DNA of 64,000 bases, from positions 146,971 to 210,970 of the forward strand of contig CAVQFA010000003.1 of NCBI GenBank assembly GCA_963711735.1. The letters are read 5' to 3'. The notes under the pieces are model-generated. The model was not told where the DNA came from. It saw only the letters and a program-made list of their open reading frames with translations, and made no database searches. This DNA is from Candidatus Gottesmanbacteria bacterium. Lineage in GTDB: Bacteria > Patescibacteriota > Microgenomatia > UBA10105 > UBA927. A program made the translations under genes and the position numbers. This document shows, piece after piece, positions 25,974-51,169 of the stretch; position 1 is the first letter of the stretch, and each line of letters starts with the position of its first letter.

Positions 25974-26295
25974 TTTTATACGTGCCTTCGGGAACAGTTA
26001 CACCTTCAACAGCGCCAAAATTTGTTCTGTAATGACGTTCATGATTATCAAGACTAGCGGAAAAAATGTATGACGATTTGTTTACGTTGCCGGTTTGGTC
26101 AGTAGCCTGCCTCCCTTGAGGGTAGCTCGTAGTCCAGTCGTTGGATTGTGCAAAGATCCGTGGTGAATGGACGGCAAACAATCCAATGAAAATAAGCATA
26201 ACCGCAACGGCCGTCTGTCGGAGGAAACATAAGCGACGCAATCTGTCAAAGGTATTCATATATGTATTATCCCAAAAACGTATAAGCGAAATCAA
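25948..26295 (-). CDS. small secreted hypothetical protein
   Basis: Signal peptide 'AVAVMLIFIGLFAVHSPRIFAQS'. Lies between the pilin array and the VirB6-like gene. Confidence 0.45.
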   Translation of the reverse strand: MISLIRFWDNTYMNTFDRLRRLCFLRQTAVAVMLIFIGLFAVHSPRIFAQSNDWTTSYPQGRQATDQTGNVNKSSYIFSASLDNHERHYRTNFGAVEGVTVPEGTYKNDPNMQNG

Positions 26296-26304: not shown

Positions 26305-26625
26305 TCATGGTATTATCGTAATTGAAAATTTCGTTACGTCAACACCCGTGAATTCTTTGATAAGAAGAAGGATGAGATACGCAACTGCTATAATCACAAG
26401 CCCGATGATTGCTCCGGTTATCGTACCTTTTGCCTTTTCAAGCTTTTTCTGGTCGCCTCCCGCAAAGAGGAAGTTGAACCCTCCCATGACGAGCATGAGA
26501 AACAGTCCGATACCCGCAATGGCGATAATAAAACGGAGAACGTTTTCAAAAAGCGGCTCGAGACACGCAATCTGCGCCACATCATCGCCATTTGGAAGAC
26601 AACTACTCCAGTCAACAAACGCCAT
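26305..26625 (-). CDS. VirB2/TrbC-like T4SS pilin paralog 1
   Basis: Two hydrophobic helices flank the family motif 'MGGFNFLFAGGDQKKLEKAKGTITGAIIGLVIIAVAYLIL'. Own promoter and an upstream terminator. Confidence 0.7.
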   Translation of the reverse strand: MAFVDWSSCLPNGDDVAQIACLEPLFENVLRFIIAIAGIGLFLMLVMGGFNFLFAGGDQKKLEKAKGTITGAIIGLVIIAVAYLILLLIKEFTGVDVTKFSITIIP

Positions 26626-26704
26626 ATATTCTCATTATCACCCAGAAAATATATTTATACAAGAACACGGTAGGGTACATAATGTAGAGAATGCCACCAA
26701 AAAC

Positions 26705-26733
26705 CCCGCTTTTGGCGGGGTTTATCGAAATTC
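26705..26733 (-). terminator. Rho-independent terminator after pilin gene 2
   Basis: 'aaaaaCCCCGCttttgGCGGGGttt' is a GC hairpin flanked by T/A runs on both strands. Confidence 0.55.
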
Positions 26734-26741
26734 ACAAAAAA

Positions 26742-27116
26742 TTATGGTGTATACGGAAGAGGTATCTTTACTCCTGATCCCAAAAGCGTAATACCAAGGA
26801 ATTGCTGTACCAGCATCATGATTGCCCACGCTGCTCCGACAATAATAAGTCCGACAACTGCATGCGTGATTTTGTTGCGTGCTGCCTCCATACCGGACTT
26901 GTCGCCGCCCGCGGTGATCCATTGAATTCCGCCGAGAATGAGATAAAGAAACGCAAGAAGCGCAGCTATGATCATAAGCAAACCGACAGCGGCTCCGATA
27001 AGCTCACCCAGACTTGTGATCTTAATAAGTTCCGTGTTTCTGGTAACTGCTATTGTGCTGGGATCGTCCTGTGCATATATAACTGGTGCTAAGAAATTCA
27101 TACGTTCCTCCTTCAA
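26742..27116 (-). CDS. VirB2/TrbC-like T4SS pilin paralog 2
   Basis: 'LILGGIQWITAGGDKSGMEAARNKITHAVVGLIIVGAAWAIMMLV'. Confidence 0.7.
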   Translation of the reverse strand: MKEERMNFLAPVIYAQDDPSTIAVTRNTELIKITSLGELIGAAVGLLMIIAALLAFLYLILGGIQWITAGGDKSGMEAARNKITHAVVGLIIVGAAWAIMMLVQQFLGITLLGSGVKIPLPYTP

Positions 27117-27207
27117 TGTATACTATAGTTGATTATATCGTACCTCTAATTGTGTCGCAACTCTTCCTACTTTGTCAATACACGCAATATGAGATCAGGT
27201 GTACACA

Positions 27208-27627
27208 TCAGCACGGTTGTCCCGGTGCGCACGTTGGGGCGGGTACTCCCCCGGGTCCGACATTTGATGGAGAAAGAACGCTGGGAAAAGGAATGTTCGG
27301 GAAAGAAATTCCAAAAAATGTGCCAAGAAAAAGCATAATTGCCCAGACGGATCCCACAATGAGAAGGCCGACAATTGCATGCGTTATTTTATTCCGTGCA
27401 TCCTCTAGCTTCGCTTTGTCTCCGCTTGCTGTAATCCATGATATACCGCCAAGAAGGAGATATACGAGGGCAAAAATGAACGAGAATATAAAAAACGCAG
27501 CAATAAAAGCACCCAATAAAGATCCAAAAACTAAACCTCCGGTTGTATATTCACCCGGATTTCCGCTTCCGCCCAAAAACGAAGGTAAAACAGGATTTTT
27601 CAGTTGTGCTAAAAGATGTGTGCTCAT
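27208..27627 (-). CDS. VirB2/TrbC-like T4SS pilin paralog 3
   Basis: 'LLLGGISWITASGDKAKLEDARNKITHAIVGLLIVGSVWAIMLFL'. Confidence 0.7.
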   Translation of the reverse strand: MSTHLLAQLKNPVLPSFLGGSGNPGEYTTGGLVFGSLLGAFIAAFFIFSFIFALVYLLLGGISWITASGDKAKLEDARNKITHAIVGLLIVGSVWAIMLFLGTFFGISFPNIPFPSVLSPSNVGPGGVPAPTCAPGQPC

Positions 27628-27630
27628 ATA

Positions 27631-28065
27631 TTATGGTGTTCCTCCGCTTCCGGGCAGCTCAAGCTGTTGTATTACCGTTGCCGGATCTATAAGCGTGTCA
27701 AACCCGAAGAACATCCCGACAAGCGCGAGTATCGCCCAACCCGCAATAACGATGACAAGACCGATAAACGCGTTCGTTATTCTGTCTCTTGCCTGTTGGA
27801 GTTTTCCCTTGTCTCCGCCTGAGGTAAGCCAGTTCAAGCCTCCCACAAGGAACTGGAAGATAAACCAGATAAGTGCAGCAATTGTCATGATGCCGATGAT
27901 GGATGATACGACCTGAGTGACTTTGGTAAGTGCACTGACCGCACCGGCACTTCCTCTGCCTATAACATCGGACCCGATGTTTCCAAACGGACCTAACCCC
28001 CCTCCGCCAATCGTTCCGAGGTCAGTGCCAACAGGATCTGCTGCATAAATGTGTTCTGATATCAT
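27631..28065 (-). CDS. VirB2/TrbC-like T4SS pilin paralog 4
   Basis: 'FLVGGLNWLTSGGDKGKLQQARDRITNAFIGLVIVIAGWAILALV'. The gap to paralog 3 is 3 nt. Confidence 0.7.
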   Translation of the reverse strand: MISEHIYAADPVGTDLGTIGGGGLGPFGNIGSDVIGRGSAGAVSALTKVTQVVSSIIGIMTIAALIWFIFQFLVGGLNWLTSGGDKGKLQQARDRITNAFIGLVIVIAGWAILALVGMFFGFDTLIDPATVIQQLELPGSGGTP

Positions 28066-28068
28066 AAA

Positions 28069-28437
28069 TTAGTTACCCGGACCATATATTTTCGGATTCA
28101 GCATGAATCCGGGATCTCCGAATATCAGGTATCCGAAAAGTGCTGCCAGCACAAATGATCCGATGAGAATGACAAGTCCGATAAGCGACTGCCAGATTCT
28201 CGCCCAGGCAGCAGTGAGCGCCTTTGCATCACCTGCCGCCGTCATATACTGATATCCGGCTATTATAATATTAAAAAAAGCAAACGCCCCCGTCACGGAA
28301 AATATAAGGCGGAGAACGTTAGTCAGAAGCGCAATGATACCCGTGTTATAAGAGCCATACGACGCGTTCATGGGGTTTGTAACAGTGCCGATAACTGATG
28401 ATGCGTCTGCAAGCACTTGTATATAATTCATAGACAA
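28069..28437 (-). CDS. VirB2/TrbC-like T4SS pilin paralog 5 (more divergent)
   Basis: 'IIAGYQYMTAAGDAKALTAAWARIWQSLIGLVILIGSFVLAALFG'. Confidence 0.65.
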   Translation of the reverse strand: MSMNYIQVLADASSVIGTVTNPMNASYGSYNTGIIALLTNVLRLIFSVTGAFAFFNIIIAGYQYMTAAGDAKALTAAWARIWQSLIGLVILIGSFVLAALFGYLIFGDPGFMLNPKIYGPGN

Positions 28438-28447
28438 TAAATATGTA

Positions 28448-28759
28448 CTACGGCAATGGCGCCGAAAGGAGCGTCATGCCTGTTAATTTTTCCAATATTT
28501 GGACGATCCAGTACGATACGACAATCAGGATAAGACCCAGAACCGCTCCTGTTATCGTTTTTTGTCCCTGTTCGAGCTTTTTGGTATCACCGGCTCCAGC
28601 GCCCATTATAACGCCGAATCCGCCCAACACCAAGAGGAGGAAGGTGAGAACCGCCGCTAACATAAAAGCATTTTTTACGATGATGTTCACGAGATCACCA
28701 AATGATGCAATCGGAGACGGAGCAACGGTGCCAAGATCCAGAGCAAAAACACGGTTCAT
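28448..28759 (-). CDS. VirB2/TrbC-like T4SS pilin paralog 6 (first in operon)
   Basis: 'LLVLGGFGVIMGAGAGDTKKLEQGQKTITGAVLGLILIVVSYWIVQILEKL'. Confidence 0.7.
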   Translation of the reverse strand: MNRVFALDLGTVAPSPIASFGDLVNIIVKNAFMLAAVLTFLLLVLGGFGVIMGAGAGDTKKLEQGQKTITGAVLGLILIVVSYWIVQILEKLTGMTLLSAPLP

Positions 28760-30305: not shown

Positions 30306-31517
30306 ATGAACACATCAAACAGAACCTTATCTCCGCACGCACAAATGAAGCTGCATATGATGGATTCTGCAAAAGACAGAAGATCGGTAGTTGAGAAAGA
30401 GCGCCGCGTTGTACTTCCTCAAATCGCAGCATTCAGTTTCGATGAGGATGTGGCGGGGAGCCACAACTGCGAAAACCTTATCGGAGGAACACAGATTCCT
30501 CTGGGGATTGCAGGGCCAATTCACATTAAACCCCGTGCGGATTATTTTATCCCTTTGGCAACGACAGAAGGTGCGCTTGTCGCATCAGTTAACCGCGGGT
30601 GTAATGCCATATCTCAAAGCGGTGGCGCATCAGTTTTGGTTGTCCGTGTGGGAGCTACCCGCGGGCCGGTATTTAAAGTGAAATCAATGGCCGAAAATTC
30701 GTCTCTGTATGATTTTATTTATTCAAATGAAGACACTATACGTAAAATTGCGGAATCTACATCACATCATTTAAAGTTATTACACATTGAAACAAACAGC
30801 GTTGGTTTGTACCGGTTTATCCGGTTTGTGTACGATACCAAAGACGCCATGGGGCTTAATATGGTTACTATCGCAACCGACGTGGTTGTTACATATATTG
30901 AAAAGGAAACCGGGGCAGTCTGTGTCAGTCTGTCCGGTAATTACTGTACGGATAAAAAAGCTTCATGGTTAAACGTGGTGAGTGGTAGGGGGTTTGAGGT
31001 ATGGGCGGAGGCGGTTATTCCGTCTGACATAGTACGCACCATACTAAAAACGACACCTCAGGCTGTTTATCAGACATGGCTGTCCAAGTGTATGATCGGA
31101 AGCGCCATGTCAGGGTCACTTGGATTTAACGCGCAGTATGCCAACATTCTGTCTGCACTCTTTATCGCAACCGGTCAGGATCCTGCACACGTGGCAGAGT
31201 GTGCGGTGGGAATTACGACGGCAGAAGTTGTTGGTGGCACATTGTCGGGTGACGATAAACAAAAAGAGAGTTTATATATGAGTATATATCTGCCGGACGT
31301 GATGGTGGGGACTGTCGGCGGAGGAACGGGACTTCCGACACAGAAAGAAGCACTGTCAATTCTGGGTGTGTCCGGAGGAAATGACGGAAAAAATTCGGAA
31401 AAGCTAGCTGAAATAGTCGGTGGCGCAGTGCTCGCAGGTGAAGTGTCATTCTTAGTCTCACTTTCTGAAGGTTCTTTAGCCCGTGCGCACATAAAACTGG
31501 GAAGAGGAGGGAAATGA
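30306..31517 (+). CDS. hydroxymethylglutaryl-CoA reductase
   Basis: 'ENLIGGTQIPLGIAGPIHIK', '...ATTEGALVAS' and 'DAMGLNMV' are HMGR catalytic motifs. The exact start is uncertain because several in-frame Met residues are candidates. Confidence 0.85.
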   Translation: MNTSNRTLSPHAQMKLHMMDSAKDRRSVVEKERRVVLPQIAAFSFDEDVAGSHNCENLIGGTQIPLGIAGPIHIKPRADYFIPLATTEGALVASVNRGCNAISQSGGASVLVVRVGATRGPVFKVKSMAENSSLYDFIYSNEDTIRKIAESTSHHLKLLHIETNSVGLYRFIRFVYDTKDAMGLNMVTIATDVVVTYIEKETGAVCVSLSGNYCTDKKASWLNVVSGRGFEVWAEAVIPSDIVRTILKTTPQAVYQTWLSKCMIGSAMSGSLGFNAQYANILSALFIATGQDPAHVAECAVGITTAEVVGGTLSGDDKQKESLYMSIYLPDVMVGTVGGGTGLPTQKEALSILGVSGGNDGKNSEKLAEIVGGAVLAGEVSFLVSLSEGSLARAHIKLGRGGK

Positions 31518-31580
31518 GTGATGAGTGGTCGGTTGTGAGCATAAACTCACAACCCACAACTTACAACTTACAACTCGATT

Positions 31581-32627
31581 ATGGTAGACATTATTTCATA
31601 CGGGACATATATTCCGAAATACCGGATCCGTACCGCGGATATTGCCGATGTTTGGAAAAAAAACGCGGACGAAATCATACACTCACTGGGAATAAAAGAG
31701 AAAAGTGTTCCGGCTATAGATGAGGATGCGGTGACAATAGCCATAGAGGCGGCTCTTGGGTGTTTCCGTGTGCAGAAAACCGGCAAACCGTCTGATACAG
31801 GAGCGTTGTTTGTCGGTTCTGAAAGTCATCCGTATGCCGTAAATCCCACCTCTACGATCGTAGGGGATTTTTTGGGTATCGGAAACAATTACCTCGCTGC
31901 GGATTTGGAGTTTGCGTGCAAAGCAGGAAGCGCCGGAATGCAGGCACTTGCCGGGCTTATCGCGTCCGGCCAATACGCGTTTGGTTTGGCAATCGGCGCA
32001 GATACCGCACAGGGAAGACCTCATGATGTTTTGGAATACACCTCAGCAGCGGCAGGTGCAGCGTTTCTTCTCGGAAAAACTGATGGTATAGCCCGATTAG
32101 TGGGATATACATCCTATTCCTCCGATACACCGGATTTCTGGCGCCGCGACGGTATCAGGTATCCAAGCCACGCCGGACGGTTTACAGGAGAGCCTGCATA
32201 TTTCACCCATGTGGTCGGTGCAGCAAGGCAATTGTTTGAAAGAGAGCACATTCAACCGGAAAAAGTGGATTACTGCGTGTTTCATATGCCCAACGGAAAG
32301 TTTCCCCGTGATGTAGCAAAGCGGCTCGGATTTACCCCGAAACAGTTAGCACCGTCCCTGACAGTTGATGCAATCGGCAACCCGTATTCTGCGTCATCGC
32401 TTTTGGGACTTGCCGCACTTTTGGATGTTGTCGAACCGAATAAAACGATCTTTATGGTGTCATACGGATCGGGAGCAGGCAGCGACGCGTTTTTATGGAA
32501 AACAACCAACCGGATACGCGATATACAAAGAAACAGAAAACACGAAAGATGTACCGTACATGATCAGACGGAAAACGAGTCGTATATCAACTACACGGAA
32601 TATTTAAAGAAAACAAATAAAATATGA
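31581..32627 (+). CDS. archaeal-type hydroxymethylglutaryl-CoA synthase
   Basis: 'MVDIISYGTYIPKYRIRTADIADVW...AIDEDAVTIAIEAA' and 'YGSGAGSDAF'. ATGA overlap with the thiolase gene downstream. Confidence 0.85.
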   Translation: MVDIISYGTYIPKYRIRTADIADVWKKNADEIIHSLGIKEKSVPAIDEDAVTIAIEAALGCFRVQKTGKPSDTGALFVGSESHPYAVNPTSTIVGDFLGIGNNYLAADLEFACKAGSAGMQALAGLIASGQYAFGLAIGADTAQGRPHDVLEYTSAAAGAAFLLGKTDGIARLVGYTSYSSDTPDFWRRDGIRYPSHAGRFTGEPAYFTHVVGAARQLFEREHIQPEKVDYCVFHMPNGKFPRDVAKRLGFTPKQLAPSLTVDAIGNPYSASSLLGLAALLDVVEPNKTIFMVSYGSGAGSDAFLWKTTNRIRDIQRNRKHERCTVHDQTENESYINYTEYLKKTNKI

Positions 32628-33775
32628 CAATTTCAATCATAGGCGCTGCAACGACAAAATTCGGAGAACTCTGGGACACGTCTCCCCGTACCCTTGCCGG
32701 GCGCGCGGCAATAGGTGCAATAGAAAACGCAGGTATCACGAGGAAAGACATTGACGGGTTGTTTGTTGGTAACATGCTGTCGGGCATTCTCGGCGGCCAG
32801 GAACACCTGGGAGCGTTTTTTTCTGAAGAACTTGGTCTGGGTGTGCCGGCATGTAAAGTAGAGGGAGCATGTGCATCCGGCGGACTTGCGGTTCATGCTG
32901 CGTATATAGCTGTTGCATCCGGTGAGTATGACACGGTACTGGTTCTCGGAATAGAAAAAATGACGGATTATAAACCGGAAGAAGTGGCAACTGCGCTTAT
33001 GGGGGCAGGGAGCGACGATGAAAGGATGGCAGGGGCAACGTTTCCGGGTTTATATGCGATAATGGCCCGCTCGCATATGGACATGTACGGAACCACACCC
33101 GAAGATCTGGCATCGGTTGCCGTTAAAAATCATTTTCATGCAAGTTTCAATCCCAACGCCCAGTTTCACGCGCTTTTAACCGTTGAACAAGTGCTTACGT
33201 CATCATGCGTTGCTGACCCTTTGAGGCTTCTGGATTGCTCTCCCATATCCGACGGTGCATCAGCAATCGTCATTACCTCCAAGGAGGGGAAAATAAGGAG
33301 AAAAGGAGCAATATCTATTGCCGCTTCGGTTGTGGCGACGGATTCGCTCGGACTGTTCGGACGGAAAAGTCTGACAGGGTTGTCTGCAACGGACAAAGCA
33401 GCCAAACATGCGTATGAAAAAGCAGGGATAGGGCCTAAAAACATTGATGTTGCAGAAGTGCATGATTGTTTTACCATCGCGGAAATTTTTGCTATGGAAG
33501 ATTTAGGAATATATAAAAAAGGAGATGCAGCCGGACGTATAAGCAGGGGAGAAACGAAACTTGATGTTTCCAAACATCTCGTCGTAAACCCTTCAGGGGG
33601 GCTTAAAGGTTGCGGACATCCGGTAGGGGCAACGGGAGTTAAACAAATTGCGGAAATTGTCGAACAACTCCGTGGAAATGCAGGGAAACGGCAGGTAAGC
33701 GGAGCGCATATCGGTCTGACACATAATGTCGGAGGAAGCGGAGCGACGGCAGTCGTGCATATATTAAAAAAATAA
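32624..33775 (+). CDS. acetyl-CoA acetyltransferase (archaeal-type thiolase)
   Basis: 'VEGACASGGLAVHAAYIAVASGEYD' carries the active-site Cys; 'NPSGGLKGCGHPVGATGV'. Confidence 0.85.
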   Translation: MTISIIGAATTKFGELWDTSPRTLAGRAAIGAIENAGITRKDIDGLFVGNMLSGILGGQEHLGAFFSEELGLGVPACKVEGACASGGLAVHAAYIAVASGEYDTVLVLGIEKMTDYKPEEVATALMGAGSDDERMAGATFPGLYAIMARSHMDMYGTTPEDLASVAVKNHFHASFNPNAQFHALLTVEQVLTSSCVADPLRLLDCSPISDGASAIVITSKEGKIRRKGAISIAASVVATDSLGLFGRKSLTGLSATDKAAKHAYEKAGIGPKNIDVAEVHDCFTIAEIFAMEDLGIYKKGDAAGRISRGETKLDVSKHLVVNPSGGLKGCGHPVGATGVKQIAEIVEQLRGNAGKRQVSGAHIGLTHNVGGSGATAVVHILKK

Positions 33776-33802
33776 TTGGATTACGTTAAGTAACTTAATT
33801 GT

Positions 33803-34103
33803 ATGATGAGTCCTGTTAAACTTTGGAGAAATCAGAAAAAAACACGGAAACTGGTTGACAAAACCGGCACGGTTATATCCTGGACTATTGTGCGCGTACC
33901 GCCCAGCGGTTTTGTGTCACAGGCTCCCTATGTTGTAGCGGTTCTTGAGCTTAACCGACACAAGCCGCATTATGTGCCAGCTTGCAGACTGCAGTGAAAA
34001 TGATGTGAAAACAGGACAGACATGCAGACTTGTAATCAGGAAAATCGGCGAACAGGGGACAGACGGGATTATACAGTACGGGATAAAAGCGAAGATTATA
34101 TGA
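33803..34103 (+). CDS. DUF35 OB-fold scaffold protein of the thiolase/HMGCS complex, with an apparent +1 frame break near 33966
   Basis: N-terminus 'TGTVISWTIVRVPPSGFVSQAPYVVAVLELNRHKP' in frame 0. The C-terminus 'IMCQLADCSENDVKTGQTCRLVIRKIGEQGTDGIIQYGIKAKII' reads in frame +1 and ends in an ATGA overlap with idi. Confidence 0.5.
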
Positions 34104-34657
34104 ATACGAACAGAAACGTGATAGTTGTAGACAATAACGATACTCAAATCGGAGAACTCGGTATTATAAAAGCCCATACAGGAGGCGGCACGCTTCATCG
34201 GGCTTTATCAGTTCTGTGCTTTCGGGAATCATCAGGGGGTCCTGAGATATTGCTTCAGAAACGGAGCAAGACAAAAACGCTTTGGGGTGGATTCTGGACC
34301 AACACCATTTGTACGCACCCGGCACCACATGAAACAACGGGAAGTGCGGGAGCAAGAAGACTGAAAGAGGAAATGGGGATTGATATTTCCGAAAAAAAAC
34401 TCACCTTTCTTTACTCGTTTGTCTACCGAGCGCAATACACAAAAACACTCAGTGAACACGAGTACGATCATATTTTTGCAGCTAAATGGAATGGGGCATG
34501 TGTGATGAATCCCAAAGAGGCAGATGACGCAAAATGGTCATCTTTGTCACGTCTCAGGAAAGATATGCATGGCAATCCTCATGTATATACTCCATGGTTT
34601 CATTTAATTATGAACGACAAGCGGACAGTACGGTATTTTGACAATATAACGGCATAA
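34100..34657 (+). CDS. idi: isopentenyl-diphosphate delta-isomerase, type 1 (Nudix fold)
   Basis: 'LHRALSVLCFRESSGGPEILLQKRSKTKTLWGGFWTNTICTHP...GSAGARRLKEEMGI'. Confidence 0.8.
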   Translation: MNTNRNVIVVDNNDTQIGELGIIKAHTGGGTLHRALSVLCFRESSGGPEILLQKRSKTKTLWGGFWTNTICTHPAPHETTGSAGARRLKEEMGIDISEKKLTFLYSFVYRAQYTKTLSEHEYDHIFAAKWNGACVMNPKEADDAKWSSLSRLRKDMHGNPHVYTPWFHLIMNDKRTVRYFDNITA

Positions 34658-34660: not shown

Positions 34661-35362
34661 ATGACAACAAACACTAAACCCACGCATATCGCAATTATTA
34701 TGGACGGAAACCGGCGGTGGGCAAAAGCACACAATCTTCCGCCGATTGCCGGACATAAAAAAGTGGCAGATGATATGCTGGAACCTCTCATAGAACACGC
34801 TGCAAAAATAGGAATTAAGTATGTTACTCTCTGGGCATTTTCTACGGAGAACTGGCAGAGGGAACCGGCAGAAGTGCAGGGCATCATGGGGATATTGCGT
34901 AAATCCCTGAAAACATTCGGAGAGAGAATGCATAAAAAAGGAATACGGATACTGACAATAGGAGATCTGTCGCGTTTTGATACGGACATCCAAAAAACTA
35001 TTGCTGATCTGAAAAATCTGACCTGCAATAATAAAAAAATAACGGTTGTTTTTGCGCTCAACTACGGTGGCAGGGACGAAATTATCCGGGCAGCTCAAAA
35101 ATTCAATGACCTGCAATCGGCAACGCGCAACTTACAACTTACCTCTAATACATTTAGTGATTTTCTCGACACTAAAGGAATTCCTGATCCCGAGCTTATT
35201 GTAAGAACCGGCGGTGAGATGAGACTCAGCGGGTTTCTGCTCTGGCAATGCCAGTATAGCGAGTTATATTTTCCTTCCTGGTATATGCCGGAGTTCACAC
35301 CCGTTCGGCTGGATGAGGCAATTCATGAATATGAGCGCCGGACGCGGAGATTCGGGGCTTAA
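34661..35362 (+). CDS. uppS: undecaprenyl (isoprenyl) diphosphate synthase
   Basis: 'HIAIIMDGNRRWAKAHNLPPIAGHKKV...YVTLWAFSTENWQR' and 'RTGGEMRLSGFLLWQ'. Confidence 0.9.
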   Translation: MTTNTKPTHIAIIMDGNRRWAKAHNLPPIAGHKKVADDMLEPLIEHAAKIGIKYVTLWAFSTENWQREPAEVQGIMGILRKSLKTFGERMHKKGIRILTIGDLSRFDTDIQKTIADLKNLTCNNKKITVVFALNYGGRDEIIRAAQKFNDLQSATRNLQLTSNTFSDFLDTKGIPDPELIVRTGGEMRLSGFLLWQCQYSELYFPSWYMPEFTPVRLDEAIHEYERRTRRFGA

Positions 35363-35365: not shown

Positions 35366-35740
35366 TTACGGAGTACCGGGAAACGTTTCCTGTATCGGTG
35401 TAAATCCAAGTATTGTTCCTGCAATCTGGACGATCCAGTATGCTGCGAAAATAAGGAAAAATCCCAAAAGCGCGTTTGTCAGACGCTGTTTGCCCGATTC
35501 CATTTTTTTAGCATCACCCGCAGCGGTAAGGAACGTGAACCCCGCGCTTATGAACATAAGAAGAACCCCGATTCCTGCTGCCGCAAATATATACGGCAGG
35601 GTCATATAAACAATATCACCGATGTGTTTGCCTCCGAATTTAGATGCGAACCCGGACATTTCGTTGGGATAGGGAACATCGGTATGTGTGCCGGGTGTAG
35701 GTCCGGGTAAATGTAATGCCTGTGCGAGCGTGTGATGCAT
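35366..35740 (-). CDS. VirB2/TrbC-like T4SS pilin paralog 7 (distal copy)
   Basis: 'FISAGFTFLTAAGDAKKMESGKQRLTNALLGFFLIFAAYWIVQIAG'. Confidence 0.65.
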   Translation of the reverse strand: MHHTLAQALHLPGPTPGTHTDVPYPNEMSGFASKFGGKHIGDIVYMTLPYIFAAAGIGVLLMFISAGFTFLTAAGDAKKMESGKQRLTNALLGFFLIFAAYWIVQIAGTILGFTPIQETFPGTP

Positions 35741-35744
35741 ATAA

Positions 35745-36592
35745 TTATCCGAATCCCGGTATGCCCAGGATGTCTAAACCAATAAGCCTCAGGATAAACA
35801 GAGAGAAGATAATAAGGATAAGTCCTGTGATAGCTGAGCCCACAAGTTCTTTGCCGGCATTGAGCTGTTCAGGATTACCGGCACTTGTCATAATCTGAAA
35901 CCCGCCAAGTATGATAAGAAGGAACGCAATTCCACCGCCAATCCCTATACCAAAGACGAGAAGCCTTCCGATAAATGCTGCCGGTGTTGTTTCGATACAT
36001 CCGATTGCCGTCCAGGAACCGTGTTTGTTAGTTCAAGCAATCGTAGCATTGCTGCGAGGACTGCCTGAACCAAGTATGACCCCGGGATATAATCGCAGAG
36101 CTGTTGTTACGCTCCCAGGTAAGGCGTACGGAATAATTGGAAGGATCAATGCATGTTTTATTAAAACACGAGCCGGCACTTCCCCCTTCACATACTAATG
36201 GGGATGTACAATCCGAATTATCATCGCAACAGACTATAGGAAGCGTGTCTCCGTCACCAGGATCGGGAACCGGTATAGTTACCTCTAATGTAGGATACGC
36301 TGTTGGGGTAACCTGATTGGCGAGTACACAAGGAAAATATAAATTTCCGACATCACCGATACAGTTCATCGGGCAACTCTCAACAGTCGGTATTTTGGCA
36401 ATCAGCCGGATTTGGTGCATACCCGGAAGCGCAGGTGTTATTGCTTGCTGCAACACAGGATGAACCCGTTGTGAGATAGAGCGTTTCGCAACAGAAAGTG
36501 TTGTCCGGAGGGGCGGCAAACGCATTGTTCACAAAAATAAACCCGGTCAGAAAAATGACGACAATAAATAGAGCAAAACGGATATATTTCAT
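35745..36592 (-). pseudogene. signal peptide + Cys-rich domain + pilin domain in three different frames (pilin paralog 8; fusion gene or pseudogene)
   Basis: Frame 1 reads 'MKYIRFALFIVVIFLTGFIFVNNAFAAPP...CQNTDC'. Frame 0 reads '...CPMNCIGD...CCDDNSDCTSPLVCEGG...QQCYDCLN'. Frame 2 reads '...GIGIGGGIAFLLIILGGFQIMTSAGNPEQLNAGKELVGSAITGLILIIFSLFILRLIG', which carries the pilin motif but has no start codon. Confidence 0.45.
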
Positions 36593-36671: not shown

Positions 36672-38417
36672 ATGAAGAATAAAATATCCGGTTTGCGAAA
36701 CATCATATTTGTAATGAAGAATATTTGTCTTGTTATATTCACCGTAATTTTTACAACATACCTTCTTCGACATGCAACTATAGTCTACGCGCAGTCCTGT
36801 GATTCTTCCTGCGCGTCAACTGATGAGTGCCGCGATAAAATTGCCAAGTGCCAGGAGGCATGGAACATGATGGAGGCTGCCAAAAAGCCACACATCGACA
36901 CGCTCCGGAAAATGGAATCGGATATCGCAGCATTTCAGGCGCGCATAAAGATAATCGAAGCAGATCTTGTGAAAAAGTCTCAGGCTATCGCATCCGGCGA
37001 GGAAGAGCTGGGTGAGTACCTCGATCTTGCCGACCGGAGAATCCGCCGTTTTTACAAGCGTCACGCGATGTTTGATGTTCTCACACCGTTTTTATCCTCC
37101 TCCAATGTTGGTTTAGCCTTACGGATGCTCGGGTACCAGCAGGCAGTGACCAACGTCGATAAACAGTCAATTACGAAAACCGCCATCTCCGTACGGGATT
37201 TGGAAGAAAAAAAGTCTAGTCTTGAGCGGGAAAAAGAATCCCTTGCGTATATTAAAACGGAAACAGATAAGCGTGCCGTAAGTGTCCGGAAACTTGTCGG
37301 AGAAGCGGAAAGTTACCAGGGTCAGCTTACCGGCATCATTGCGAGTTTAACCGCCCAACAGACAGCAATCCTCTCCGCCAGATCCGGTGTGTTTACAACG
37401 AGTGTCGGTGATGTACCCCTCGCTGACGATCCCAACGCCAGCCCTTCGTACAATCCCGGATTTAGCCCGGCATTCGGAGGATTTTCCTTCGGAGCGTATA
37501 CGCACAAAAAAGGCATGAGTCAGTACGGGGCAAAAGGAAGGGCTCAATCCGGTCAAAATGCACGTGACATACTCAGGGCGTATTACGGTAAGGAGCCGGT
37601 TGGGAAAGACACCGGCGGGGATATATCCGTTTCCGGGTATGGCAACATGAATTTTGAAGACAGGTATCTTATGGGTATTGCGGAAATGCCGTCGGATTTC
37701 CCGAAAGAAGCACTCAAAGCACAGGCAATTGCCGCACGGTCATATGCATGGCGGTATAAAACAGGCGGACAGACGATCTGCACTACACAGGCATGCCAGG
37801 TATACAACGACGGTAAGGCAAACAACCCGCCCGGACCGTGGCGGGAGGCAGTGCAGGAAACGAAAGGGCAGATCATCGAAGACGTTGTTGCGTACTACTC
37901 GTCCACAACCGGCGGGTACCTCACGACGATGGGGTGGGATACGAAATGCGGTAATCAGGGATGCTGGACAGGGGATGCATACGAAAAAATTGCCAACTCA
38001 CCATGGTTTTATAAAGGCTGGTATACGGCAGACTATTACAACTCTTCCGGCAAATGCGGCAAAAGCCACCCATGGCTCTCACAGGAGGAATTTGCCGATA
38101 TCCTCAACGCCTGGCAGGTGAGGAAAAACGGAGGAGATTCGAGCCGTATCCTGCCAATTACGATCAACGAGTGTTCGATAAACGGCGCAACAGGCAATCC
38201 GTATTCTATGAGCGAACTTCGGAATATGGGAGGGTTCACGGGTGTGTCGGGTGTTTCTGTAACGTATAACTCTGGTGGCTATACCGACACGGTTACGATT
38301 CAGACAAACAAAGGATCAGTTTCCATTCCCGGAGGCGAGTTTAAAGAAGCGTTCAATTTACGTGCTCCGGGTTATATATCCATCCGTAGTTCTTTGTATA
38401 ATATCGAGAAAAAGTAG
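36672..38417 (+). CDS. SpoIID/LytB-domain protein with N-terminal TM and coiled coil
   Basis: 'HKKGMSQYGAKGRAQSGQNARDILRAYYGK' and 'ALKAQAIAARSYAWRYK...YYSSTTGGY'. Start chosen at the ATG at 36672, after the RBS 'taggaga'. Confidence 0.8.
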   Translation: MKNKISGLRNIIFVMKNICLVIFTVIFTTYLLRHATIVYAQSCDSSCASTDECRDKIAKCQEAWNMMEAAKKPHIDTLRKMESDIAAFQARIKIIEADLVKKSQAIASGEEELGEYLDLADRRIRRFYKRHAMFDVLTPFLSSSNVGLALRMLGYQQAVTNVDKQSITKTAISVRDLEEKKSSLEREKESLAYIKTETDKRAVSVRKLVGEAESYQGQLTGIIASLTAQQTAILSARSGVFTTSVGDVPLADDPNASPSYNPGFSPAFGGFSFGAYTHKKGMSQYGAKGRAQSGQNARDILRAYYGKEPVGKDTGGDISVSGYGNMNFEDRYLMGIAEMPSDFPKEALKAQAIAARSYAWRYKTGGQTICTTQACQVYNDGKANNPPGPWREAVQETKGQIIEDVVAYYSSTTGGYLTTMGWDTKCGNQGCWTGDAYEKIANSPWFYKGWYTADYYNSSGKCGKSHPWLSQEEFADILNAWQVRKNGGDSSRILPITINECSINGATGNPYSMSELRNMGGFTGVSGVSVTYNSGGYTDTVTIQTNKGSVSIPGGEFKEAFNLRAPGYISIRSSLYNIEKK

Positions 38418-39295: not shown

Positions 39296-41131
39296 ATGAA
39301 GATCGTTTCCGACACCGCATCCGTTATCGGCAGCAGCAACCCTACTGTTTGGGGGCAGATACTCAACGGTAAGCACGGGCATGCAGTTGTTGAAGTGAGC
39401 GGTGAAGAACAGGAAGCGGCAAAACAGGGCATTACCCTTCTTGGTGAACTTGAAAAAATTCTGGCAAATCCCCAGCAAAATCCCGAAGATCTGAAAAAAA
39501 TTTCTGCCGATCTCCGTTATCCGCACGTGGTAACGATGATTCTTTGTATACCTGTCGGCAAAATCCTCTATATAACCCTTTCCGGTGAAGGTGGTGTGTA
39601 TCTCAAAAGAGGCAATAACGTAGCGGTTCTTCTCTCGGGTGAGGGGTTTATTTCAGGAGAAGTTCGGGAGAAAGATACGCTCATTCTTGCATCCAAAACT
39701 CTCTCCGCATACATAAAAGACTGCATAGCATCATTTGACCATCTGCCGGCTGAAGAGGCAGCAGAAAAACTCACGTACCTTATCAATTCACAACACGCTG
39801 AATGGTCAGGTGCAGCGCTTATTTATCAGGTTTCGTCGCTTGAAGAGGAACCTGTTGAAACAACGGAATTGCCGGAGGTAAAAGAACAGCCCATCCGGCG
39901 GAGAATTCCTGTATGGATGTCACGCAGGGTTGCCGTGCGTGTGTTTCATGATATCCGGAACGGCCGTATACCGTATAAAGAACGCATGAAGGAAGAAATA
40001 CGGACCATAACATCAAACAAGCGGAGAGTCCTTTCTGCTGTTTTTATATGTTGTGCTGTTATTTTTCTTCTGAGTGTAGTTCTTGGAATCAGGAAACAGG
40101 TAACGGACAAAGGGAACCGCGAAACGTCAGCAGTACTTACGGAAGCGCGGCACGCGTTTGAAGAAGGAGTCGCACTTCGTGACCTCAATACTATAAAAAG
40201 CAGGGAACGGTTCAAAGAAGCGCTGAAAGTACTTGACGCTGCAATAGCAAACAAGACTGTTCCGCCGAACCTCCGTCGTGAGGTAGACACTCTCAGACAA
40301 GACGTGGCAGATAACCTGTCCGTCGTATCAGCAGAGCGGAAGGTGACCCCGTCACTTTTTTTTGATGCGGAACTTTTGAAAAAAGGAGCGAGTGTGAAGA
40401 AAATCGCCAGGGTAAGCGATACGCTTATCATCCTTGACACAAGCGCGCGGACCGTCATAGCACTTTCCGTTGCCGACAAATCCGGTCGTATCATCGGCGG
40501 CGGGGAGTATGTACAGGGCACATCACTCATAACCGGGTATGACAACCGCGCATACCTTTTTTCTGACAACGGCATTTTTATACTGCCGTTTGAAGGAAAA
40601 GCAGATAAAAAACCCGTTATTGCCAAAAACGAAGGATGGGGGAAGATAGCGGCAATGAGTGCATTTGCCGGAAATCTGTATCTTCTGGACTCGGGAAAAA
40701 ACAGGATATGGAAATATATGGCTGTCGAAAGCGGAGGATTTAGTGATATGCGGGAGTATCTCCGTCCAGACACGCTTCCTGATTTTTCCGGCGCAACGGA
40801 CATGCAGATAAACGGATCTGTCTGGGTAAGCACAAGCACGCTGGGATTCTTGAGGTTTACGCAGGGGATGGAGGAGACGTTTGTGCCGACAGGGATTGAA
40901 GGACCGGAGCTTGGTAAAAACCTGTCCGTCTATACCAGCGACGACACCGAACGGGTATACGTGCTTGATAACGCCAACAAAAGAGTTGTGGTTTTCGGAA
41001 AAGACGGCATATACCAATCCCAATATGTATGGGAAGGAGAAATAAGCCCCACAGCGCTTGCGGTGTATGAGAAAGAAAAGATAATCCTTCTCGTTTCTGC
41101 GGGAAAAATCTATTCGTTTGCGTTACAATAG
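39296..41131 (+). CDS. hypothetical membrane protein with C-terminal beta-propeller-like repeats
   Basis: Central TM 'VLSAVFICCAVIFLLSVVLGI'. C-terminal repeats of the type 'LYLLDSGKNRIWKY / VYVLDNANKRVVVFGKDG'. Confidence 0.55.
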   Translation: MKIVSDTASVIGSSNPTVWGQILNGKHGHAVVEVSGEEQEAAKQGITLLGELEKILANPQQNPEDLKKISADLRYPHVVTMILCIPVGKILYITLSGEGGVYLKRGNNVAVLLSGEGFISGEVREKDTLILASKTLSAYIKDCIASFDHLPAEEAAEKLTYLINSQHAEWSGAALIYQVSSLEEEPVETTELPEVKEQPIRRRIPVWMSRRVAVRVFHDIRNGRIPYKERMKEEIRTITSNKRRVLSAVFICCAVIFLLSVVLGIRKQVTDKGNRETSAVLTEARHAFEEGVALRDLNTIKSRERFKEALKVLDAAIANKTVPPNLRREVDTLRQDVADNLSVVSAERKVTPSLFFDAELLKKGASVKKIARVSDTLIILDTSARTVIALSVADKSGRIIGGGEYVQGTSLITGYDNRAYLFSDNGIFILPFEGKADKKPVIAKNEGWGKIAAMSAFAGNLYLLDSGKNRIWKYMAVESGGFSDMREYLRPDTLPDFSGATDMQINGSVWVSTSTLGFLRFTQGMEETFVPTGIEGPELGKNLSVYTSDDTERVYVLDNANKRVVVFGKDGIYQSQYVWEGEISPTALAVYEKEKIILLVSAGKIYSFALQ

Positions 41132-41147
41132 CGGACATTCCGATGAT

Positions 41148-41591
41148 ATGAAAATAGTACACAAACGGGCTCTGTTTGACTATACGATTTCCGAAAGACT
41201 TGAAGCCGGCATCCAGCTTACCGGTGCTGAAGTTAAATCACTCGCCGGCGGACACGCAAGCCTCGAAGGATCATTTGTTCGGATTATGGGAACCGAAGCG
41301 TACCTCGTGAATGCCCAGATATTTCCCTACATTTATGCCCGTCCGGAGGGGTATGATCCTAAACGGACGAGGAAGCTTCTTGTCCATAAAAAACAGCTGT
41401 TGAGCCTGAAATCGAAGATTGAGGGCGCCAATTTGACCCTGGTACCCATTTCTTTATATAATAAAGGACCGAAATTCAAGCTCGAGATAGGTATAGGGAG
41501 AGGGAAAAAACAGTTTGAAAAGAGGGAAAAAAAGCGGAAAGAGGACCAGAAGAGGGAGCTCGAGAGGGATTTTCGGGGAAAGATAAAATAA
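41148..41591 (+). CDS. smpB: SsrA-binding protein
   Basis: 'MKIVHKRALFDYTISERLEAGIQLTGAEVKSLAGGHASLEGSFVRI'. Confidence 0.9.
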   Translation: MKIVHKRALFDYTISERLEAGIQLTGAEVKSLAGGHASLEGSFVRIMGTEAYLVNAQIFPYIYARPEGYDPKRTRKLLVHKKQLLSLKSKIEGANLTLVPISLYNKGPKFKLEIGIGRGKKQFEKREKKRKEDQKRELERDFRGKIK

Positions 41592-41695: not shown

Positions 41696-42110
41696 GGGGA
41701 TGATTGATTCGACGGGAGTAGCTCATTGACAACCGCAAGCCGGCTTTTGATATGTAGCCGTAAAAGAAGTATCAAAAAATAATTGCTGATACAAAAGCAA
41801 AACTTCGCCAAGAACTCGCGGATCTCCGCGCATACTTCGGCGAATCTCCAAGAGCATACGCTCAGCTTTCATTAGCTGCGTAAACTCCTGTGGGACGTTT
41901 TCTAAGTTACCTTTTCCGGTTGGTGCTTGGAAGGCGGAAACAATAGCCGGGACACAGAAATCAAATTGACCGATTGATTTCGGAGAAAAAGGTCAACCCT
42001 TTCCGCAGTTGTCATGTCCATGAGTCATGCGGGAAGAATAACATGGACTACGCTTGTAGACGTTTGATATAAGCTCTTTCGGAACCGGGCTCAATACCCG
42101 GCATCTCCAC
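41696..42110 (+). ncRNA. ssrA: transfer-messenger RNA
   Basis: 5' end 'GGGGATGATTGATTCGACGGG'. 3' T-arm 'CCGGGCTCAATACCCGG' plus acceptor 'CATCTCCA' gives a G3:U70 pair. The internal ORF ends '...AYAQLSLAA' then TAA. Located directly after smpB. Confidence 0.75.
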
Positions 42111-43785: not shown

Positions 43786-43869
43786 GGAGAGTGGGCAGAA
43801 CGGTAATGCACAGGTTTGCTAAACCTGCAACGCGCAAGCGTTGAGTGGGTTCAACTCCCACACTCTCCG
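43786..43869 (+). tRNA. tRNA-Ser (anticodon GCU)
   Basis: Cloverleaf with acceptor GGAGAGT/ACTCTCC, anticodon stem-loop 'CAGGT TTGCTAA ACCTG', a long variable arm and T-arm 'GTGGGTTCAACTCCCAC'. Confidence 0.8.
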
Positions 43870-43890
43870 CATATATGGTATACTGGTTAA

Positions 43891-44367
43891 GTGGTTGAGT
43901 ACATAAGAAACCCAAATACAAACTGTTGTGTTTGCCATAAACCAGTATACAAAAGACCCTCACAAATTAAGTTAAATCACGGAAAAGTTTATTGTGGTCT
44001 TGAGTGTTATGGTATTTCTTGTAGAAGGGAAAAACCATGTATAATATGCGGGAAGCCTGTTTTGGCAGGATTAAATAAAAAAACGTGTAGTCGAAGCTGC
44101 TCGAACAAATTAAGAATAGGAACGCATTATCATGGAGGTTATTCACGAAGTAAAGTCAAAAATTACCAAAGTTTGAAAATGCGCTTGATTGCTCAAAGAG
44201 GGAAAAAATGTGAACGATGTGGATACGGGAAACTTGAAATATTACAAGTACATCACGTGAATAAAGATCGGAACAATAATGAATTGAGCAATTTGGAATT
44301 GATATGTCCTAATTGTCATTATGAAGAACATTTGTTACAAAAAAGTTGGATGAAAACGTTGGTTTAA
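43891..44367 (+). CDS. free-standing HNH endonuclease
   Basis: Multiple CxxC pairs and the HNH core 'CERCGYGKLEILQVHHVNKDRNNNELSNLELICPNCH'. Confidence 0.75.
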   Translation: MVEYIRNPNTNCCVCHKPVYKRPSQIKLNHGKVYCGLECYGISCRREKPCIICGKPVLAGLNKKTCSRSCSNKLRIGTHYHGGYSRSKVKNYQSLKMRLIAQRGKKCERCGYGKLEILQVHHVNKDRNNNELSNLELICPNCHYEEHLLQKSWMKTLV

Positions 44368-44377
44368 TAGTAAACAA

Positions 44378-44462
44378 GGAGGGTGGGCAGGACGGTAATG
44401 CGCGAGTCTTGAAAACTCGTGGGAGCAATCCCTAACAGGTTCGACCCCTGTATCCTCCGCCA
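44378..44462 (+). tRNA. tRNA-Ser (anticodon UGA), CCA encoded
   Basis: Acceptor GGAGGGT/ATCCTCC, anticodon stem-loop 'CGAGT CTTGAAA ACTCG', long variable arm, T-arm 'CAGGTTCGACCCCTG'. Confidence 0.8.
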
Positions 44463-44543
44463 AGTTAAACTTGGCTAGGACGTTTGATGTCTTGCGTTGA
44501 TATTTTTTGTTCCCTCCGAAGTCTTAGCGAAGGAGGACTTCTT

Positions 44544-44629
44544 TGGAGAGGTCGCATAGTTGGTCTAGTGCAGCAGTTTACTAAACTGCCGTAACGCAAG
44601 TTACCGCGAGTTCGAATCTCGCCCTCTCC
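44544..44629 (+). tRNA. type II tRNA (Ser-like acceptor) with apparent anticodon ACU
   Basis: Acceptor GGAGAGG/CCTCTCC, anticodon stem-loop 'GCAGT TTACTAA ACTGC', long variable arm, T-arm 'GCGAGTTCGAATCTCGC'. The anticodon assignment is unusual. Confidence 0.5.
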
Positions 44630-44714
44630 GCCGGGTTATCTAGCCACATTTTTAATCACAAGAGAAAGATACCCCTTCCCATCCGGAAAGCATAATAATT
44701 GATATAATGACAGC

Positions 44715-45782
44715 ATGTCCGAATTAATTGATGACCCCAATAGTGCAAGAACGGGTAATGAAATTTTTGATGAATCACCGACTTCAAACCCAGATGTTAC
44801 TGAGCCGGTTGATCAAACCCCTAAAAGAAGAAATATTTCTCTATTTCAATTACTTGTGGGAGCTCTTTTTGTTGTTTGTGTGGTGATAGGTGTAGTTTTA
44901 CTGATATTTTCCGAAAACGCGAATAAATCAAACGTTAAACCAAATGATATTACAGAACAGACAAATATAAATCCAACCCTTGGTACAGGATTTTCAGCAG
45001 TTATACAAACAACCACTACACCAGCAATAATTATTGCTCCTACGAGCACACCGAAAATTTATCATACGAATACACCAATAAATACACCTACGCGTGCTCC
45101 AATGCCCACACCAACTCCAACAAGAACACCACGCCCGCCAATTGTAAATATTTCATATCCGTCAGAGATGCAGGTCATTAACATGACAGAAAACCAACAA
45201 CTCTGTGTGGCAGACGTTCCAAACGGCGGTGACACGTCGGGAACAATGAGACGTCATAATATTAACGATGGAGGATGGAGTGGGTACACCCAGGTTTTTA
45301 CTCTATGTTTTACTCCAAACGAAGGCATTAACCGGATTCAACTGCAATATAAAAATTCGTACGGAGATGAATCGACACAATATACAAGACAGTTTGTATT
45401 TCACCGGATATCTCCGATGACTATTACGTATAGCGGGCAGGTGTTTTTAGATACAAACTGTAACGGAAATTTTGACAGCGGCTCGGAAAATTATATAAAT
45501 TTTTCAACAAAAATTAATATTCTGCAGATTCCAGGAGCTCAAACGCTCGCAACACCGACAACCGGTTTATCCGGAAACTGGAGTTTTTCTAAGCAGATAA
45601 TGGATAACGAATCTATTACCCTTCAGGCTGTTGTGGATTCCTCTATACCAGCGCCTTATGTTTTGTATCCGGATTCCGATAAACGGATTTTTAACCGGAC
45701 TTTCGATACAAATAACAGAAACATTTCCATTTTGCAACCTATTGTCACAACCACTATTTATACAACCATTTGTCCCCACTAA
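44715..45782 (+). CDS. N-terminally anchored hypothetical protein with Pro/Thr linker
   Basis: TM 'ISLFQLLVGALFVVCVVIGVVLLIF' and linker 'NTPTRAPMPTPTPTRTPRPP'. Confidence 0.55.
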   Translation: MSELIDDPNSARTGNEIFDESPTSNPDVTEPVDQTPKRRNISLFQLLVGALFVVCVVIGVVLLIFSENANKSNVKPNDITEQTNINPTLGTGFSAVIQTTTTPAIIIAPTSTPKIYHTNTPINTPTRAPMPTPTPTRTPRPPIVNISYPSEMQVINMTENQQLCVADVPNGGDTSGTMRRHNINDGGWSGYTQVFTLCFTPNEGINRIQLQYKNSYGDESTQYTRQFVFHRISPMTITYSGQVFLDTNCNGNFDSGSENYINFSTKINILQIPGAQTLATPTTGLSGNWSFSKQIMDNESITLQAVVDSSIPAPYVLYPDSDKRIFNRTFDTNNRNISILQPIVTTTIYTTICPH

Positions 45783-46036
45783 CGGAGATATATAGATTCT
45801 ACAAACGACACCGACACCTTACTTATGGTCTGTTCTTAAAAGCAGGAGAAGACTATTTTTGTTTTGTTGTGTGGGTCGAAAATAACATTTTTATAAGTAA
45901 AATCGGCATACTATACCCCAGAGAGAAATACCCCTATCCGTAATAGCTTCCAAAGCCGTCAGTGGACCGATTTCAGTGTAAACTTACGCTCTCCGTATTT
46001 TTGAAATAGACAGAGGAAATATATACAATAATTCTA

Positions 46037-46684: not shown

Positions 46685-46730
46685 CGTAACTACGTTTCAT
46701 TAACAAACAGGTAATACTCAATTCCCTTTT

Positions 46731-48008: not shown

Positions 48009-48051
48009 GATAGCCTACAATAAATAATATATAAAATAATATATAAAAAAC

Positions 48052-49863: not shown

Positions 49864-49943
49864 TTTTGGATTGTCTTGTTCTACTCGGGTTTTTCGATAA
49901 CCCAAAACAAACCCACTCTCTCCGCAAATAGTATAATAATCGC

Positions 49944-50429: not shown

Positions 50430-50539
50430 CTATTAAACGTTTCAAAGCAGACGAAGAATTACTTTCTCATAGCGCGTCCTGAAGACGGGAAGCCCCAGCG
50501 GCATTGCATTGAAACTCCAAAGAACGGTATACTGGTTTT

Positions 50540-51058: not shown

Positions 51059-51097
51059 CTGGCTACAGAACCGAGTAAAGTGATAAAATACCGATAC

Positions 51098-51169
51098 GCT
51101 CCCGTAGTTTAACGGATAGAATAGGGGTTTGCGGAACCTCTGATCGCAGTTCGATTCTGCGCGGGAGCG
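51098..51169 (+). tRNA. tRNA-Arg with apparent anticodon GCG
   Basis: Acceptor GCTCCCG/CGGGAGC, anticodon stem-loop 'GGGGT TTGCGGA ACCTC', T-arm 'CGCAGTTCGATTCTGCG'. The body is near-identical to the tRNA-Arg(CCG) at 53406. Confidence 0.6.

Follow-up and report, generated by a model that had tools for sequence, protein, structure and literature searches.

Is a pilin domain that has no start codon of its own a part of the Cys-rich open reading frames (ORFs) next to it, and is such a fusion peculiar to the genome that carries it? The question was raised by a locus in a 64,000-nucleotide stretch of contig CAVQFA010000003.1 from Candidatus Gottesmanbacteria bacterium. This stretch, at its full length, is referred to here as the window, and positions are counted from its first letter. 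At 35745..36592, the minus strand encodes, in three different frames, a signal peptide, a Cys-rich region and a pilin domain, and the initial annotation had proposed to read them as one product with two frame corrections.

We consider it highly probable that in this segment the genome carries, in broken form, the long pilin gene conserved in Patescibacteria of the Microgenomatia/Gottesmanbacteria type. The gene appears to be interrupted by at least four single-base breaks (+1, -1, +1 and +1, where +1 means one extra base and -1 one base missing). In the deposited sequence, the pilin domain is predicted to be untranslatable and this copy of the long pilin non-functional.

Layout of the pilin pair

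The long pilin gene is followed by an intact short pilin gene, whose start lies 4 nt beyond the stop of the long one. The parts of the pair are listed here, with the frames of the long gene named A, B and C, and the four cysteines of its neck named C1 to C4.

35366..35740, minus strand: short pilin, intact ORF of 124 aa, PF18895 (T4SS_pilin) at 31.8 bits
35745..36592, minus strand: the whole long pilin gene, interrupted; ortholog of protein P0002 and of the long pilin genes at loci L003-L009
36515..36592, minus strand: signal peptide MKYIRFALFIVVIFLTGFIFVNNAFA, frame A; hydrophobic N-terminus, KD12 = 3.1
36383..36514, minus strand: first part of the Cys-rich ectodomain, frame A, up to the stop TGA at 36382..36380
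36099..36379, minus strand: main part of the Cys-rich ectodomain, frame B, ESCPMNC...CFNKTCIDPSNYSVRLTWERNN
36080..36106, minus strand: frame-A detour QQLCDYIPG, containing the neck motif [VIL]-C1-[DE]-[FY] as LCDY at 36100
36031..36078, minus strand: frame-B stretch HTWFRQSSQQCYDCLN, containing neck cysteines C2 and C3 (CxxC)
35745..36032, minus strand: pilin domain, frame C, with the WTAIGC hairpin (C4), two hydrophobic helices and a stop at 35747..35745

The frame-A ORF (36380..36592) opened with a typical Sec leader, in agreement with the initial annotation, which had described it as a signal peptide and Cys-rich sequence in a third frame. Its product was MKYIRFALFIVVIFLTGFIFVNNAFA followed by APPDNTFCCE...CQNTDC, and the putative cleavage site of the signal peptide, AFA/A, was assigned by rule. 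The first Cys-rich part resembled the N-terminus of protein P0005 (27% over 60 aa in a high-scoring segment pair).

The Cys-rich ORF that followed (36028..36525) ended in a TAA at 36030..36028, which overlapped the first codon of the pilin frame; that this frame opens 2 nt before the stop had been noted before. The neck stretch in frame B was matched by positions 28-42 of the family hidden Markov model (HMM).

The frame-C product, TNKHGSWTAIGCIETTPAAFIGRLLVFGIGIGGGIAFLLIILGGFQIMTSAGNPEQLNAGKELVGSAITGLILIIFSLFILRLIGLDILGIPGFG, scored 34.0 bits against PF18895, for which the gathering cut-off of the Pfam HMM is 26.6 bits, and 166 bits against the family HMM. It was 77-82% identical to the homologs and 77% identical to P0002, and the loop between its two hydrophobic helices was TSAGNPEQLNAGKE. 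Frame C opened directly after a TGA (36035..36033), and no ATG, GTG or TTG occurred before 35891, which is already within the domain. These results bore out the earlier description of an eighth pilin domain without its own start. The description of 35366..35740 as an intact seventh paralog held as well (PF18895 match), the six other paralogs being located at 26305..28759.

The frame of the pilin domain thus contained neither a start ahead of the domain nor an export signal; the signal peptide lies in another frame, four breaks away. Of the gene as deposited, translation could yield a single product that has both a start and a signal peptide, a 70-aa peptide from frame A.

The long pilin in related genomes

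The conceptual fusion product was used as the search query. It matched 589 proteins, 120 of which were listed, including the window's own ORF (P0001), and the family counts were drawn from the remaining 119 listed homologs. A WTAIGC-type motif was present in 107 of these 119, preceded by 60-276 residues, and the lengths ranged from 154 to 366 aa. An N-terminal hydrophobic leader was found in 92 of the 107 motif-bearing homologs. The neck, [VIL]C[DE][FY]-x7-14-CxxC-x6-7-WTA[IL]GC, was found in 103 of 106 homologs among the matches listed. In the window, all four cysteines of the neck were present, but in different frames: the one in LCDY in A, the two in CYDC in B and the one in WTAIGC in C.

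Twelve homologs were examined in full. They were single ORFs of 185-309 aa, each with a signal peptide, a Cys-rich domain and a pilin domain. In the predicted proteins, a signal peptide, a Cys-rich ectodomain and a pilin in one chain is the norm of the family and not peculiar to the window. The outcome is chiefly a correction, as the apparent pilin/Cys-rich fusion is the normal build of a large family already catalogued as PF18895. A frameshifted gene or pseudogene is, provisionally, the fitting annotation of 35745..36592, rather than three small ORFs.

The nearest full-length relative among the matches listed was P0002, an intact protein of 250 aa from a syntenic contig of a Patescibacteria metagenome-assembled genome (MAG). 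In gene order, this contig encodes SmpB, a 608-aa protein, DUF5657, a 200-aa protein, SpoIID, the long pilin and the short pilin. They are followed by uppS, DUF35, thiolase, HMG-CoA synthase, HMG-CoA reductase, Yip1, a sigma factor and a pilin array.

The order SpoIID, long pilin, short pilin and uppS was common to the window and to all of seven independent related loci (L003-L009), five from genomes and two from metagenomes, which belong to Gottesmanbacteria and unclassified Patescibacteria. At each of the seven, the long pilin was one unbroken ORF with a signal peptide; the window copy spans three frames. These ORFs are the in-frame Cys-rich-pilin fusions that the initial annotation had proposed to seek in related genomes. 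The opposite arrangement that it had considered, a separate Cys-rich gene followed by a normal pilin gene with its own ATG, occurred at no related locus. The short pilin was the constant partner of the long pilin at every related locus. The conserved neighbours of the pair in the window are as follows.

34661..35362, plus strand: uppS, undecaprenyl-diphosphate synthase type, convergent
36714..38417 (start at 36672 or 36714), plus strand: SpoIID-domain gene, divergent

Across the orthologs, the lineage-specific and usually Cys-rich ectodomain had lengths of about 40 up to 210 aa and contained 2 to 16 cysteines, and it was Cys-poor in L006 and L008. The long-pilin ectodomain of L007 (5629..6303), a locus on a Gottesmanbacteria chromosome, contained a 33-aa Cys-rich module, CIEDNQCKTLLQSCCSGNSVTVSAGICATTQKC, twice in tandem and without a difference between the copies. 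This predicted protein shows that the evolution of the ectodomain can include module duplication. When the frame-B Cys-rich segment of the window was searched with HMMER against 1.84 billion representatives, five weak matches were obtained besides its own ORF, and three of these were repetitive proteins, matched in 9-24 stretches. The segment appears to be an orphan and hypervariable.

Placement of the breaks

The breaks were confined to the following positions.

Break 1, A to B, +1: 36380..36396, minus strand, either where TGT meets TGA or within the A4 run 36396..36393
Break 2, B to A, -1: 36098..36106, minus strand, limited by the C1 codon on one side and a TAA of frame A (36109..36107) on the other
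Break 3, A to B, +1: 36049..36094, minus strand, at some point after C1 and before C2
Break 4, B to C, +1: 36030..36036 (TTGAACTAA), minus strand, confined by a TGA of frame C (36035..36033) and a TAA of frame B (36030..36028)

At break 4, frame B read ...QQCYDCLN and a stop, and was followed by NKHGSWTAIGCIE in frame C; the P0002 sequence reads ...AECVDCFMNKKGAWTAIGCIE. Removal of one base at 36030-36036 produced CYDCLN-NKHGSWTAIGC, which is equal in length to CVDCFM-NKKGAWTAIGC of P0002. Placing break 1 in the A4 run resulted in 18 cysteines, an even number, and an even count was also found in 93 of the 107 listed homologs. The most likely site of break 3 is probably the C3G4 run (CCCGGGG) at 36086..36080.

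Breaks 2 and 3 were needed because the first neck cysteine sits in frame A (LCDY, in the detour at 36106..36080), within a stretch that is read as frame B. The two corrections proposed initially were therefore not sufficient, and at least four were needed. The motif [VIL]C[DE][FY] occurred twice in the 127,996 residues of the six-frame translation of the window, and one of the occurrences was LCDY. By our own estimate (about 40 candidate positions x 1.6e-5), the chance expectation for the motif 16 residues before CxxC was about 6e-4.

With the four corrections, the conceptual product was about 281 aa long. Its ectodomain was about 165 aa, which revised the earlier figure of about 200 aa for the Cys-rich domain. 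The repaired product fitted every invariant column of the family, with the cysteine of LCDY at column C166. The repaired pilin kept 40 of the 42 positions of at least 90% conservation, the median of the homologs being 41, and one of its two missed positions was an alignment effect at C1. No nonsense codon was present within the reading frame of the repaired gene. A codon-usage frame scan gave a signal that was too weak in the Cys-rich part for placing the breaks.

Predicted fold and working of the intact protein

In the AlphaFold model of the ortholog P0002, the C-terminal module was confident (predicted local distance difference test, pLDDT, about 87-94) and the ectodomain was of low confidence. 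The module consisted of two short helices with C1 and CxxC, a beta hairpin with WTAIGC, and two long hydrophobic helices. The long helices (172-204 and 209-243) were joined by a polar GNPEQLNAGKE loop.

VirB2-type pilins are membrane hairpins that are extracted into a filament; the loop between the helices then points to the lumen, and the termini lie outside. By analogy, the intact long pilin would be exported by Sec and would sit in the membrane as a two-helix hairpin, with both ends outside and the GNPEQLNAGKE loop inside. [quoted passage not shown] The N-terminal extension would lie on the filament surface, because the termini lie outside in VirB2-type filaments. The ectodomain, presumably stabilised by disulfides, would be shown on the exterior of the filament as a host-recognition or adhesion module.

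A role in adhesion or host recognition fits three features: the ectodomain is extremely variable while neck and core are highly conserved, the pairing with the short pilin is constant, and T4SS genes are present in the window. The initial annotation had suggested a minor pilin with an adhesin module. The fused build is upheld by all seven orthologs, the adhesin role is one that we infer, and the deposited copy cannot yield the fusion.

Other interrupted genes in the window

Seven lesions were found in the window, all of them frameshifts and none a nonsense mutation. They were present in three genes only, four in the long pilin gene, two in a VirB6-like gene and one in a DUF35 gene.

The VirB6-like gene (24703..26295, minus strand), which adjoins the pilin array, is split into three ORFs. 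Its product would be a multi-pass membrane protein of about 520 aa, which had no Pfam match and 766 homologs of 450-530 aa in single ORFs. This protein is probably a divergent VirB6 analogue of Microgenomatia. The two breaks lie in an A9 run at 25940-25948, the longest homopolymer of the window, and in a T7 run at 25220-25226. Consensus errors may account for them, as may real slippage or phase variation, and the two runs could in principle act as phase-variation sites.

The DUF35/OB_ChsH2_C gene (33803..34103, plus strand) contains a +1 frameshift at about 33953-33957 (CTTAACCGAC). Its ortholog in L001 is intact (102 aa); residues 1-51 of this ortholog aligned with one frame of the window gene and the remainder with the following frame. 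The DUF35 gene is part of a mevalonate cluster (30306..34657, plus strand), together with genes for HMG-CoA reductase, HMG-CoA synthase and thiolase and an IDI-like Nudix gene. In the syntenic MAG, a GHMP kinase replaces the IDI-like gene of the window.

Origin of the breaks

Several points weigh against reading 35745..36592 as a long pilin gene that was broken four times and whose product is built for a pilus. The repaired C1-C2 spacing is 15 residues, close to the maximum in the family (7-16), and breaks 1 and 3 each fit more than one exact position. Across about 50 kb of other ORFs, 165 long homopolymers are in frame, and the lesions are strongly localised. A Foldseek search of the PDB found no significant solved pilin (the best match to a conjugative pilus was 8dfu, E = 3), and a sequence-profile search of the PDB gave no match. 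With no solved pilin matched, the labels 'VirB2-like' and wider VirB2 superfamily rest on Pfam and on the two-helix topology. The display of the ectodomain on the pilus is likewise something that we infer from analogy.

Uniform sequencing noise is disfavoured, because the lesions are limited to three genes and the long homopolymers elsewhere are in frame. The 13 syntenic neighbour genes were unbroken. The localisation fits real lesions or special local assembly trouble, for instance from a mixture of strains at a surface gene that is hypervariable. The breaks are frameshifts only, two of them form a close -1/+1 pair, conserved positions are kept, and the short pilin and the other T4SS genes are intact, which points to a consensus error or a very recent event. 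Scans of genome contigs and of metagenome contigs for strain-level relatives gave best segments of 54% and 73% identity, respectively, and the proteins of the window were singletons in the collections searched. These collections contained no second assembly of the population.

An artefact, in which the gene is intact in the organism and the four one-base indels are consensus errors (introduced, for instance, when long reads were polished at a surface-protein locus that varies between strains), has about an even chance. It agrees with the lesion types, seven frameshifts and no nonsense codon, with the location of two of them in the A9 and T7 runs, and with the number of conserved positions kept in the repaired pilin (40 of 42). 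The -1/+1 pair formed by breaks 2 and 3, within about 20-50 nt, is typical for consensus misalignment. A housekeeping gene, DUF35, is broken along with the VirB6-like gene, the co-transcribed short pilin is intact, and no protein of this population was found in any Illumina-based (Logan) assembly. However, the in-frame homopolymers of the other ORFs show that the assembly is not noisy overall, and four errors in 370 nt at short runs (A4, G4 and AA) would need a special local cause. Alternatively, the long pilin may truly have been inactivated and be in early decay, its role being dispensable or covered by the other seven pilins, a course of events to which we give somewhat less than an even chance. 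In its favour, the three affected genes lie among about 50 kb of unbroken ORFs, two of them contain several lesions each (four in the long pilin and two in the VirB6-like gene), eight pilin paralogs provide redundancy, and single-base expansion of short runs is a natural type of mutation. About 2-3 changes would then be expected at the 42 constrained positions (our own estimate, from 5-10 substitutions per indel), yet the frame was free of stops and conserved residues had not been lost. Insertions make up three of the four lesions, contrary to the usual deletion bias of bacteria, and the intact rest of the T4SS is hard to square with a VirB6-like gene and a long pilin that have long been dead. 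The initial suggestion of a decaying pseudogene was right in that the gene is broken, by four frame shifts; real lesions and consensus errors are not separable by sequence alone, and we assign roughly half of the probability to an artefact, a little under half to a real recent inactivation and a small remainder to other causes.

Other readings of the locus take the stops as meaningful. Breaks 1 and 4 are both +1 and can be placed exactly at stop codons, as in programmed +1 frameshifting at TGT-TGA-G and AAC-TAA-C, and variable surface-protein genes are often phase-variable, as in a slipped-strand switch of an adhesin-pilin. Programmed recoding or phase variation is nevertheless very improbable here. 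All seven orthologs are plain single ORFs in which the shift site is not conserved, the four breaks are of mixed sign and include the -1/+1 detour, and break 1 is placed equally well in the A4 run, off the stop. There is no prfB-like slippery context, and a P-site tRNA on TGT or AAC would be unable to re-pair in +1. No run of more than 4 nt and no repeat lies at the breaks of the pilin gene, and scans for Rfam families, repeats, promoters and terminators gave nothing above chance. It is also hardly credible that the locus consists of separate genes, with one or two small secreted Cys-rich proteins beside a degraded pilin remnant, although the depositor's annotation calls the 165-aa ORF a protein (P0001). 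This ORF begins inside frame B, without a signal peptide, and its Cys-rich part has only the five weak matches besides itself. An independent Cys-rich gene was found at none of the related loci, and the neck motif is continuous across the ORF boundaries. A variant of this reading, in which TGA encodes an amino acid (code 4 or 25), was rejected: read-through of frame A gave nonsense and soon a TAA, and 14 of 60 long ORFs have TGA as their normal stop codon.

T4SS genes and other features of the window

Besides the broken long pilin gene and its partner, the window contains the following T4SS genes.

13390..15285, minus strand: VirB4-like
16010..17284: PrgI/VirB3-like
17427..19598: coupling protein
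24703..26295, minus strand: VirB6-like, split into three ORFs
26305..28759: array of six pilins, all PF18895 paralogs

Apart from the VirB6-like gene and the long pilin, the T4SS genes (VirB4-like, coupling protein, PrgI-like, six pilins and a gene for a 1216-aa protein) were intact. A 192-aa ORF without a Pfam match lies 4 nt upstream of the VirB4-like ORF (631 aa), in another frame (13390..15868 for both, minus strand). Together they amount to about 820 aa, a typical VirB4 length, and may represent a split gene or a true two-gene arrangement.

The 1216-aa protein (21035..24685, plus strand) had no Pfam match, and its gene is flanked by nadE and the VirB6-like gene. The equivalent position in the syntenic MAG (L010 11540..15220) is taken by a 1226-aa gene, and tblastn gave no alignment of it with the 1216-aa protein at E <1e-5. 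NadD/NadE (19601..20957) was also considered as a split gene, and was found to be two separate genes.

An ORF near the beginning of the window (45..842, plus strand) was 40% identical to residues 462-720, the C-terminal third, of the coupling protein at 17427..19598. It hints at a further coupling-protein paralog and perhaps at another T4SS locus that runs off the window.

Five tRNA-Ser genes are present within 12 kb (43786..55404), one of which (44545..44632) has the anticodon ACT according to ARAGORN, which is unusual. There are also two tRNA-Arg genes. The tmRNA gene (41696..42110) immediately follows smpB (41118..41591).

Comparison with known systems

Patescibacteria contain VirB2-like pilin arrays of 2-11 genes, which are most abundant in Microgenomatia (PMC12102498). 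The T4SS is essential for the epibiotic growth of one cultivated Patescibacteria species, and a VirB6-like homolog is essential in a cultivated relative; recognisable VirB6 is scarce in the group (PMC12102498). The survey of Patescibacteria T4SS found no PrgB-type adhesin (PMC12102498). It did not describe the long-pilin architecture, and the term 'signal peptide' is absent from its text.

The pair of long and short pilins is strongly syntenic across Gottesmanbacteria-like genomes. This synteny and the variable ectodomain, together with the lack of adhesins in the survey, make the pair a reasonable candidate for a component of host contact by the T4SS. It seems unlikely to us that the long pilins are the missing adhesins of the Patescibacteria T4SS, each with a fast-diversifying, disulfide-rich domain for host recognition on its VirB2-type core, and that the breaks in the pilin and VirB6-like genes reflect real on/off switching or loss in the population and not sequencing error.

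The long pilin resembles the PF18895 pilins of Patescibacteria in its family match above threshold, its two-helix hydrophobic core and its place among divergent paralogs near genes for VirB4, VirB3/PrgI, a coupling protein and a VirB6-like protein in Microgenomatia. Unlike the pilins of the array, the long form adds a signal peptide, a hypervariable ectodomain of 40-210 aa and a four-Cys neck. The pair is also fixed between the cell-wall genes SpoIID and uppS, off the main array, and the window copy is frame-broken.

In its state of preservation, the window copy resembles the frameshifted genes of MAGs and bacterial pseudogenes, with single-base indels at runs, adjacent overlapping ORFs and intact orthologs. 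It differs from the usual frameshifted MAG genes in having four breaks in 370 nt of one gene, in a neighbourhood that is otherwise clean.

Like the VirB2/TrbC/TraA pilins of the T-pilus and F-pilus, the long pilin is predicted to be a small membrane-hairpin subunit with a cleaved leader. Neither a folded ectodomain nor a Cys neck occurs in the classical pilins. Their systems are diderm, in contrast to the monoderm-like Patescibacteria, whose T4SS is of the mating pair formation FATA (MPF-FATA) type, which is otherwise without pilins (PMC12102498).

As a proposed variable module for surface recognition on a secretion pilus, the ectodomain may be compared with the tip protein VirB5, the adhesin PrgB of Gram-positive T4SS and adhesin-bearing minor pilins. 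It shares no homology with these proteins, and in the long pilin the module would be fused straight to a core of the major-pilin type.

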